17,907 bases of DNA, taken from IMG/VR virus record IMGVR_UViG_2675903650_000016; one strand, written 5' to 3'. Both the position numbers and the translations under genes were made by a program. The notes beneath the pieces are model-generated. The model made no database searches. It was given only the letters and a program-made list of their open reading frames with translations, and was not told where the DNA came from. The stretch is from a virus. Taxonomy: Duplodnaviria > Heunggongvirae > Uroviricota > Caudoviricetes. Shown here piece after piece: positions 16,200-16,441 of the stretch. Positions within the stretch are counted from its first letter, which is position 1. The number at the start of each line of letters is the position of its first letter.

Positions 16200-16240
16200 G
16201 TAAAATCCCCGTCATATGGCAATCAGTAAAGGAAATAAAT

Positions 16241-16441
16241 ATGTCATCGAAAAACCGGACCCGCAGAACCACAACCCGCAATATCCGTTTCCCCAATCAC
16301 ATGATTGAACAGATCAACATCGCCCTTGAGCATAAAGGATCCGGTAACTTTTCAGCGTGGGTTATTGAAGCCTGCAGGAGAAGGCTGGCAACAGATGCAA
16401 CGCATCTGCGCCCGGCCAGCATGAAAAATAACGAGAAATGA
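16241..16441 (+). CDS. ribbon-helix-helix (CopG/Arc-like) DNA-binding protein
   Basis: 66 aa. ATG at 16241 is preceded by AAGGAAA. A basic N-terminus is followed by RNIRFPNHMIEQINIALEHKGSGNFSAWVIEACRRRL, which fits a beta-strand then helix-turn-helix RHH pattern. It is the only plus-strand gene I support in the window. Confidence 0.55.
   Translation: MSSKNRTRRTTTRNIRFPNHMIEQINIALEHKGSGNFSAWVIEACRRRLATDATHLRPASMKNNEK

Follow-up and report, generated by a model that had tools for sequence, protein, structure and literature searches.

The closest described relatives of the gene studied here are ylcI and ynfO of Escherichia coli K-12, which lie in the prophages DLP12 and Qin, respectively, and whose function is equally uncharacterised. 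The gene itself encodes a protein of 66 amino acids on the plus strand of a 17,907-nucleotide stretch of viral DNA (IMG/VR record IMGVR_UViG_2675903650_000016; we call the whole stretch the window), which belongs to a lambdoid E. coli prophage of the JLK-2012/BP-4795 (Marienburgvirus) type. YlcI and YnfO share 85-88% identity with the window protein over residues 1-52, and here as there the gene runs antisense to the late genes and diverges from the gene of the small terminase subunit (TerS). What differs is the C-terminal tail, which is unrelated, and the divergent neighbour, an HNH endonuclease gene 41 bp away in the window versus a Nu1-type gene 388 bp away, across cos, in K-12.

A second point of comparison is the pair Arc and Mnt of phage P22, ribbon-helix-helix (RHH) repressors encoded in the immI region within the late operon. 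Mnt is produced in the lysogen, from a gene that likewise runs counter to the late operon. Like the predicted window protein, these are small RHH proteins (about 50 residues) with the ribbon N-x-R-x-P, and their genes lie in late-gene territory. On the other hand, the gene in the window has no adjoining antirepressor gene, no operator was found, and the sequence similarity is marginal (hhalign probability 12%). A tblastn search found no remnant of Ant or KilA-N in the window, so that the locus cannot be counted as an immI region of the Arc/Mnt type. RHH antitoxins and CopG-family regulators (TacA, ParD, CopA_SO and the N-domain of NikR) are the best structural neighbours of our model of the protein, with low scores, but there is no toxin partner in the window. 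Finally, Rpp of the E. coli phage-inducible chromosomal islands (PICIs) is a mimic of the TerS DNA-binding domain joined to a dimerisation domain, and it redirects packaging (PMC6739421). The window protein differs from Rpp in that it has no TerS-like domain. The likeness is found only in satellite fusion proteins, where a dimerising module, here the RHH of DUF3950, is combined with a close copy of the DNA-binding domain of the helper TerS. These fusions differ from Rpp as well: their TerS-like part is a true homologue (62-67% identity) and stands at the C-terminus, and their genes occupy a repressor-like slot behind an operator-like array and not the late region.

By its profile matches, the window gene is a member of the already named and very common YlcI/YnfO (DUF3950) family and not a new one. 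It matches Pfam DUF3950 (PF13132) with 71.8 bits against a cutoff of 25 (E = 4e-20), NCBIfam YlcI_YnfO_N (NF041551) with 35.3 bits against a cutoff of 30, and phrog_949, which is labelled 'unknown function', with E = 3e-33. The original prediction, which was made from the sequence of the window, had missed that this family is named, very common and present even in phage lambda. The family signature IRF...NFSAWV..AC is complete (I15, R16, F17, N36, F37, S38, W40, V41, A44 and C45); among 21 diverse members the signature residues are invariant or at least 90% conserved, R16 being invariant, and the loop KGSGN is conserved too. With a probability of about 0.5, we read the protein as a small dimeric RHH repressor of the Arc/Mnt kind, made while the late operon is silent and acting on a target in trans. 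The gene as such is ordinary, being named, annotated by RefSeq and found in most E. coli, yet it is constrained much more strongly than a typical small prophage open reading frame (ORF).

ATG 16241 is the exact onset of the DNA homology to K-12 ylcI and ynfO, within which most of the differences are synonymous. RefSeq annotates WP_000095743.1 ('YlcI/YnfO family protein') on exactly these bases in an E. coli chromosome, for which 100% identity was established over window positions 15800-16950, while the left part of the record appears different from the window. Since the homology onset, the RefSeq coding sequence (CDS) and the Shine-Dalgarno sequence (Table 1) agree, we take ATG 16241 as the true start. 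A mechanically called ORF with the same stop (16441) starts at GTG 16181 and has 86 amino acids; this start was ruled out, because the homology and the RefSeq CDS begin at ATG 16241 and the longer form overlaps the start of HNH. In the original prediction the gene began at 16200 and lay 41 bp from HNH. The spacing stands, whereas 16200 is merely the first base of the spacer. The orientation had been described correctly: the gene diverges from HNH (minus strand), converges on a TonB_C lipoprotein gene (minus strand) and runs against the late operon. In the matching prophage, RefSeq annotates no other gene on this strand, and all large family-supported ORFs of the window are on the minus strand. 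Judging from conservation and annotation, the CDS is a genuine gene, far beyond a chance ORF.

From the single sequence, AlphaFold2 gave a poor model (predicted local distance difference test, pLDDT, of 60). With an alignment of 22 sequences, the single-chain model has two helices (residues 19-32 and 37-55) and a core pLDDT of 73-81. The N-terminal strand is not formed, which is expected for a monomer because a single chain was modelled. Foldseek puts ParD (ParD2) and NikR at the head of its list, with no match being significant. Sequence searches of the Protein Data Bank with the protein and with the family profile gave nothing meaningful and matched no chain, and there is a weak match to a HicB-like PHROG. 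At the low probability mentioned above, hhalign places the family profile in register with Arc, T12-R-N14-I-R16-F-P18 falling on Q9-F-N11-L-R13-W-P15. Q9, N11 and R13 are the base-contacting residues of Arc. The sequence of the ribbon is also as it should be, with alternating polar and hydrophobic residues followed by a proline, then a glycine-containing loop and a serine (S38) that starts helix 2. From the modelled helices, the ribbon in the register of Arc and the ParD, NikR and TacA neighbours, the original assignment as an RHH protein is very likely correct, and the product is very probably a small Arc-like DNA-binding protein. In the repressor that we propose, two chains would pair their N-terminal strands to form a dimer in which T12, N14 and R16 face the DNA as the three residues of Arc do; the predicted dimer would bind DNA and repress transcription.

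Over codons 1-50, the window gene and the lambda copy differ by 24 synonymous and 5 non-synonymous changes (proportion of synonymous differences pS 0.70, of non-synonymous differences pN 0.043, pN/pS 0.06), and in comparisons with other subtypes (ynfO, BP-4795, PhiR42_1) the ratio is 0.08-0.15. By this measure strong purifying selection acts on the first 50 codons, which cover the RHH domain completely. Near codon 50 the homology to the rest of the family breaks off, and the E. coli homologues have at least nine unrelated tails; the tail beyond this point is replaceable.

This constraint bears on the possibility that the transcription of the gene matters and not its product. In that case, the gene would be a transcriptional insulator (an excludon): head-on transcription would block read-through from late-strand morons that are active in the lysogen, namely the lipoprotein gene in the window and lambdap79/ybcW in lambda and DLP12, into HNH and the terminase genes, whose expression in a lysogen would be harmful. 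We see that the gene is convergent with a late-strand gene in lambda, DLP12, BP-4795 and the window, and that no terminator-like site lies between the convergent genes in the window. Furthermore, ybcW-ylcI has been listed as a convergent overlapping transcript pair, an excludon, in at least half of the K-12 RNA-seq samples (PMC12288877). However, pN/pS is 0.06 over these 50 codons while their synonymous sites are close to saturation, which means that the protein sequence itself is selected and not merely its transcription. In addition, the next gene, encoding a DUF1398 protein, is co-directional in Qin and PhiR42_1, and the scans of the window, lambda and DLP12 did not find a strong promoter. 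We therefore consider an insulator to be unlikely. Independently of this, the ylcI transcript from the silent DLP12 prophage supports the expression of a homologue in the lysogen state.

In all phage and prophage contexts examined, the gene is the last one before the packaging module, pointing away from it and running counter to the late operon. In lambdoid phages it regularly marks the border where the lysis/moron region meets the packaging module. The module consists of HNH and a Terminase_2-type TerS in the window, JLK-2012 and BP-4795, and of cos and Nu1 in lambda, DLP12, Qin and PhiR42_1. Among the IMG/VR viral contigs that carry the same RHH allele with enough flank, 63 of 64 have HNH upstream of it. 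Lambda itself (NC_001416.1, complement of about 48112-48306; our locus L008) has an intact YlcI homologue of 64 codons, 199 bp from the right cohesive end (cosN), for which the RefSeq record has no annotation. The DNA common to window-type and lambda-type loci is the coding core only. The GC content of the RHH gene is 49% as compared to 55-58% in the late genes; as for the other marks of a moron, the promoter scan gave no clear promoter or terminator of its own, and the gene almost always accompanies the HNH packaging module.

Such a position would suit a protein that acts together with TerS, HNH or cos, perhaps as a partner of TerS or as an accessory DNA binder on the cos side. The gene is the first one beyond the packaging module whatever the terminase type, it is close to cosN in lambda and it is linked to HNH-TerS in nearly all of the loci counted above. 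On the other hand, the identical ribbon is found with unrelated terminases and cos sequences (Nu1/A versus HNH and Terminase_2), and because of this pairing the RHH cannot read cos-specific DNA. Transcription against the late operon is the wrong timing for a packaging protein, the gene is intact in DLP12 and Qin, which no longer package, and many phages with the same terminase types are not among the 155 matching phage records. A packaging-linked factor is thus not a likely explanation, although the fusions described below also bear on it.

The original prediction proposed that the protein might regulate the adjacent TonB_C lipoprotein moron through the palindrome at 16920-16936. The palindrome exists (AGAATAAG t CTTATTCT) and shares bases with the -10 of a promoter-like site on the strand of the lipoprotein gene (16573-16905; Pfam TonB_C, E = 1e-14), and RHH proteins are known to bind short inverted repeats. 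However, it lies in a cassette that is a clean insertion of about 600 bp relative to cassette-less relatives, starting a few bases past the RHH stop codon, with a 9-bp near-repeat (CGTTCGGTT / CGTCCGGTT) at its junctions. While HNH accompanies the same RHH allele in 63 of 64 loci, the cassette is present in 37 of them (about 58%) and missing from 27. Among the loci compared, only the two with the lipoprotein gene contain the palindrome, and lambda, DLP12, Qin, BP-4795 and PhiR42_1, five phages or prophages with an identical RHH ribbon, lack it. Going by this distribution, the palindrome is part of the lipoprotein cassette and not of the RHH gene, which makes regulation of the moron through it highly improbable. 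It is the cassette that has the properties of a moron, that is a promoter-like site, a deviant GC content and a presence/absence polymorphism. Compared with the Fur consensus, the palindrome also agrees at 13 of 19 positions, a score equalled but not exceeded elsewhere in the window. A Fur box would suit a TonB-domain gene and would be a further point against regulation by the RHH protein, but 13/19 is too weak for such a claim. The lipoprotein could be a periplasmic decoy of the TonB C-domain against TonB-dependent phages or colicins. PHROGs calls its family 'Rz-like spanin' (phrog_1267), apparently a mis-annotation.

Many antitoxins are built, as here, from an RHH domain with a variable tail behind it, and TacA and ParD are among the top structural neighbours. 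Potentially, the gene could be an orphan or degenerate type II antitoxin, with an N-terminus that binds DNA and a variable tail that once neutralised a downstream toxin. A candidate partner is seen in Qin (L004 6757-7458) and PhiR42_1 (L010 3501-4202), where a co-directional DUF1398 gene (ydfO/ybcV type) follows 43-57 bp downstream of the RHH gene; the two may form a two-gene unit there, and RHH-DUF1398 read-through fusions exist in the databases (protein P0165). However, DUF1398 is not a known toxin, and PADLOC finds nothing for RHH or YdfO. The window, BP-4795 and lambda have no co-directional downstream gene; in the window the next gene is convergent, in place of the co-directional adjacent toxin gene of a type II system. 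The tails, moreover, look like read-through of junctions, since homology ends at the domain boundary. The original prediction had raised an orphan antitoxin-like regulator and had remarked, correctly for the window, that no toxin partner was evident; the idea finds no positive support here, and an antitoxin is very unlikely.

The distant homologues of the protein give a different picture. We scanned one genome per species, with many lambda spike-in contaminants among the matches, and obtained 39 genuine homologues with 34-59% identity, all from Enterobacterales. At least 17 of these 39 lie in small islands adjoining tRNA genes, in the order int, (alpA), further genes, the RHH gene on the opposite strand, a small ORF and primase. 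This is the layout of PICI/P4-like satellites, and genes for AlpA, an AntA antirepressor and Rha are found on the integrase side. Upstream of the satellite RHH gene there is a terminator-like hairpin and then at least three copies of a 14-bp palindrome, GGTG-N6-CACC, with centres that are specific to the element. The second copy abuts GTCAAC, and the last one overlaps a -10-like TATAGT that precedes the start codon by about 35 nt. In another subgroup (L063, L065, L074, L083, L084 and L089) there are instead two copies of TGGTA(C/G)(G/T)TACCA, one of which abuts the start codon. Repeated 11-mers are far above shuffled controls in 16 of 20 satellite loci, and there are none in the window, lambda and BP-4795. 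To judge by the sequences, this arrangement has the classic look of an autoregulated repressor between divergent promoters, the palindromes being its putative operators. Our reading of the window protein as a repressor draws mainly on these homologues in integrase-primase satellites.

In some satellites the same gene slot, behind the same repeat array, encodes the RHH domain (DUF3950) fused to a copy of the N-terminal DNA-binding domain of TerS. Residues 2-51 of the window TerS are matched by the TerS-like part of P0192 with 62% identity; for P0221, the figure is 67% against residues 1-55 of the TerS encoded by the prophage that surrounds its satellite. Such natural fusions speak for a connection of the phage gene with packaging, as discussed above. 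On the other hand, they occur in satellites and in a repressor-like slot behind an operator array, and may inform us on satellites more than on the phage gene; as far as can be told from their sequences, they tie DUF3950 to the packaging family of the HNH/Terminase_2 type in satellites and not in the phage. The fusions could be Rpp-like hijackers or repressors that sense TerS. In L006, a hairpin-containing element of about 56 nt (about 4494-4549; GTGGTTAAACGCCTCGG...CGGGGCGTTGCTATTTTT) adjoins the satellite RHH operator array and matches unannotated stretches of about 32 E. coli plasmids with 87% identity. When E. coli satellites akin to the fusion locus were sought, only this hairpin element (about 60 nt) turned up, mostly on plasmids.

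Several results weigh against our preferred reading of the window protein as a repressor with a target in trans. In the satellites, the operator centres do not obviously co-vary with the residues of the ribbon, so that another protein could bind there. In the window, the scan found no convincing sigma-70 promoter for the RHH gene. The sole promoter-like match nearby on the plus strand (16111-16139, 9/12 matches) lies inside HNH, about 100 bp upstream, and TAAAAT at 16201-16206 is a possible weak -10 read by eye and not a tool match. The same scan upstream of the lambda and DLP12 copies gave no match on the strand of the gene. A search for repeats and palindromes, including repeated 11-mers, found none upstream of the copies in the window, lambda and BP-4795, and GGTG-N6-CACC is not enriched in the window (5 seen versus 10.5 expected). 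Finally, a literature search found no functional study of YlcI, YnfO or DUF3950; the 'mutations in ylcI' of two evolution papers look like mis-mapping between paralogues.

Scans for palindromic 14-mers of the satellite type upstream of the window, lambda and DLP12 copies were likewise negative, and Rfam recognises no RNA family in the window. The 11-mer GTATTCAGTGT is the sole word common to the upstream regions of the window and DLP12, in inverted orientation; we treated it as a chance match, because it is not conserved in BP-4795 (about 0.07 expected by chance). If the protein binds DNA, its site is short and unrecognised, or elsewhere, since there are no upstream repeats or palindromes and the coding core is the only DNA common to the loci. 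Since the palindrome of the moron is excluded and the gene is not preceded by an operator array, the protein probably acts on a target in trans. This may lie in another part of the phage, in lambdoid prophages or satellites that share the cell, or in the host. That the gene is kept in decayed prophages and in multiple copies, with no operator in cis, also argues for a lysogen function that acts in trans. The repressor that we propose would be expressed at a low level from a weak promoter at the 5' end of HNH or in the spacer, while the late operon is off (in the prophage or in early infection), and after induction head-on late transcription would silence its gene. If it is indeed a DNA-binding protein expressed in the lysogen with a target in trans, a regulator would be added to the best-studied phage.

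A more specific proposal would be that the lambdoid YlcI/YnfO and the satellite DUF3950 proteins are two sides of one regulatory system of helpers and satellites. The satellite RHH would then be a master repressor on the GGTG-N6-CACC arrays, and the fusion with the TerS domain would either recruit the helper terminase to satellite DNA, as Rpp does, or act as a sensor that is de-repressed by the helper TerS. The helper copy, which has no operator, would act in trans on satellites or other prophages, e.g. by keeping parasites silent. Such a system is quite unlikely, but if true it would explain both the missing target in cis and the tie of the gene to the packaging module. In any case, three side observations are worth keeping: the lambda copy that lacks an annotation, the operator arrays of the satellites and their RHH-TerS-domain fusions. 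The latter two offer a way into how one class of satellites is repressed or hijacks packaging of the HNH/Terminase_2 type.

Table 1. Coordinates of the gene, its surroundings and the related satellite features. Plain ranges are window positions; L and P numbers denote loci and proteins.
Feature	Position	Strand	Basis and remarks
CDS of the 66-aa YlcI/YnfO (DUF3950) family protein	16241..16441	+	Translation MSSKNRTRRTTTRNIRFPNHMIEQINIALEHKGSGNFSAWVIEACRRRLATDATHLRPASMKNNEK; family matches; identical RefSeq CDS; pN/pS 0.06
Shine-Dalgarno AAGGAA, 6 nt upstream of the ATG	16229..16234	+	Direct sequence reading
Conserved predicted RHH core, residues 10-50	16268..16390	+	Ribbon TTTRNIRFP; helix 1 about 19-32; loop GSGN; helix 2 from about 37
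C-terminal tail, not conserved	16391..16441	+	ylcI and ynfO align at the DNA level up to about codon 50; unrelated tails in the E. coli homologues
Spacer of 41 bp separating the start codons of the divergent HNH and RHH genes	16200..16240		Ribosome-binding sites of both genes, back to back
HNH endonuclease gene of the packaging module, divergent neighbour	15834..16199	-	Pfam HNH; start codon 16197-16199
Moron cassette, independent of the RHH unit	about 16452..17055	-	TonB_C lipoprotein gene; promoter-like site 16959 to 16932; palindrome 16920-16936; GC 42%
Satellite repeat arrays (putative operators)	L052-L089, about 130 nt upstream of each RHH start (e.g. L053 about 4840-5000)
RHH-TerS-domain fusions (P0192, P0217, P0219-P0222; 120-142 aa)	L006 4714-5103; L007 6001-6429		Between int/alpA and the primase operon

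The conserved core of 153 bp is present in 4184 of 5426 complete E. coli genomes (77%), at 9569 places in total and with up to 12 copies per genome. Both K-12 members are intact although DLP12 and Qin are heavily decayed. As a family, DUF3950 is small: among 1.84 billion representatives there are only 103 clusters (50% identity) at E <= 1e-3, and many of these 103 are error-laden lambda reads. The protein databases contain many frameshifted versions of the lambda ORF. Moreover, many 'genomes' of unrelated bacteria (Kitasatospora, Cohnella, Streptomyces and others; among them L011 and L014-L041, with proteins P0024-P0216) have the gene on contigs of about 3.5 kb or 48 kb. As in lambda, the gene on these contigs is 88% identical to the query, so they look like lambda control DNA, probably sequencing spike-ins. 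A match to a 'transcriptional repressor' of a Pasteurella phage is spurious, as it lies on the strand opposite to the annotated gene.

According to a 2026 preprint (bioRxiv 10.64898/2026.09.04.749371), lambda escapes the Vulcan defence system when recombination with the Qin prophage deletes its gene lambdap79. It is plausible that the conserved ylcI/ynfO core serves as a flank for this exchange, the deleted gene (L008 2339-2545) being convergent with the lambda YlcI homologue.

The other minus-strand neighbours of the gene in the window encode TerS, the large terminase subunit (TerL), a 74-aa ORF and an Rz spanin. At the tail-gene end, on the late strand, positions 909-2072 (minus strand) hold a gene for a Gram-negative porin of 387 amino acids (Pfam Porin_1, E = 1e-140; GC 44%), a moron of the OmpC/NmpC-like type; the SCU-104 prophage, which matches otherwise, has tail genes L and K annotated in its place. 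The spacer between HNH and terS (15543-15833) contains five copies of (C)AGTTAACAT in both orientations, including a perfect 22-bp palindrome, GCCAGTTAACATGTTAACTGGC, at 15721-15742. Another prophage of the HNH/Terminase_2 type (L007) has a related sequence, CAGTTAACAT, in the corresponding spacer. These repeats probably represent the cosB-like sites of the cos region to which TerS would bind.

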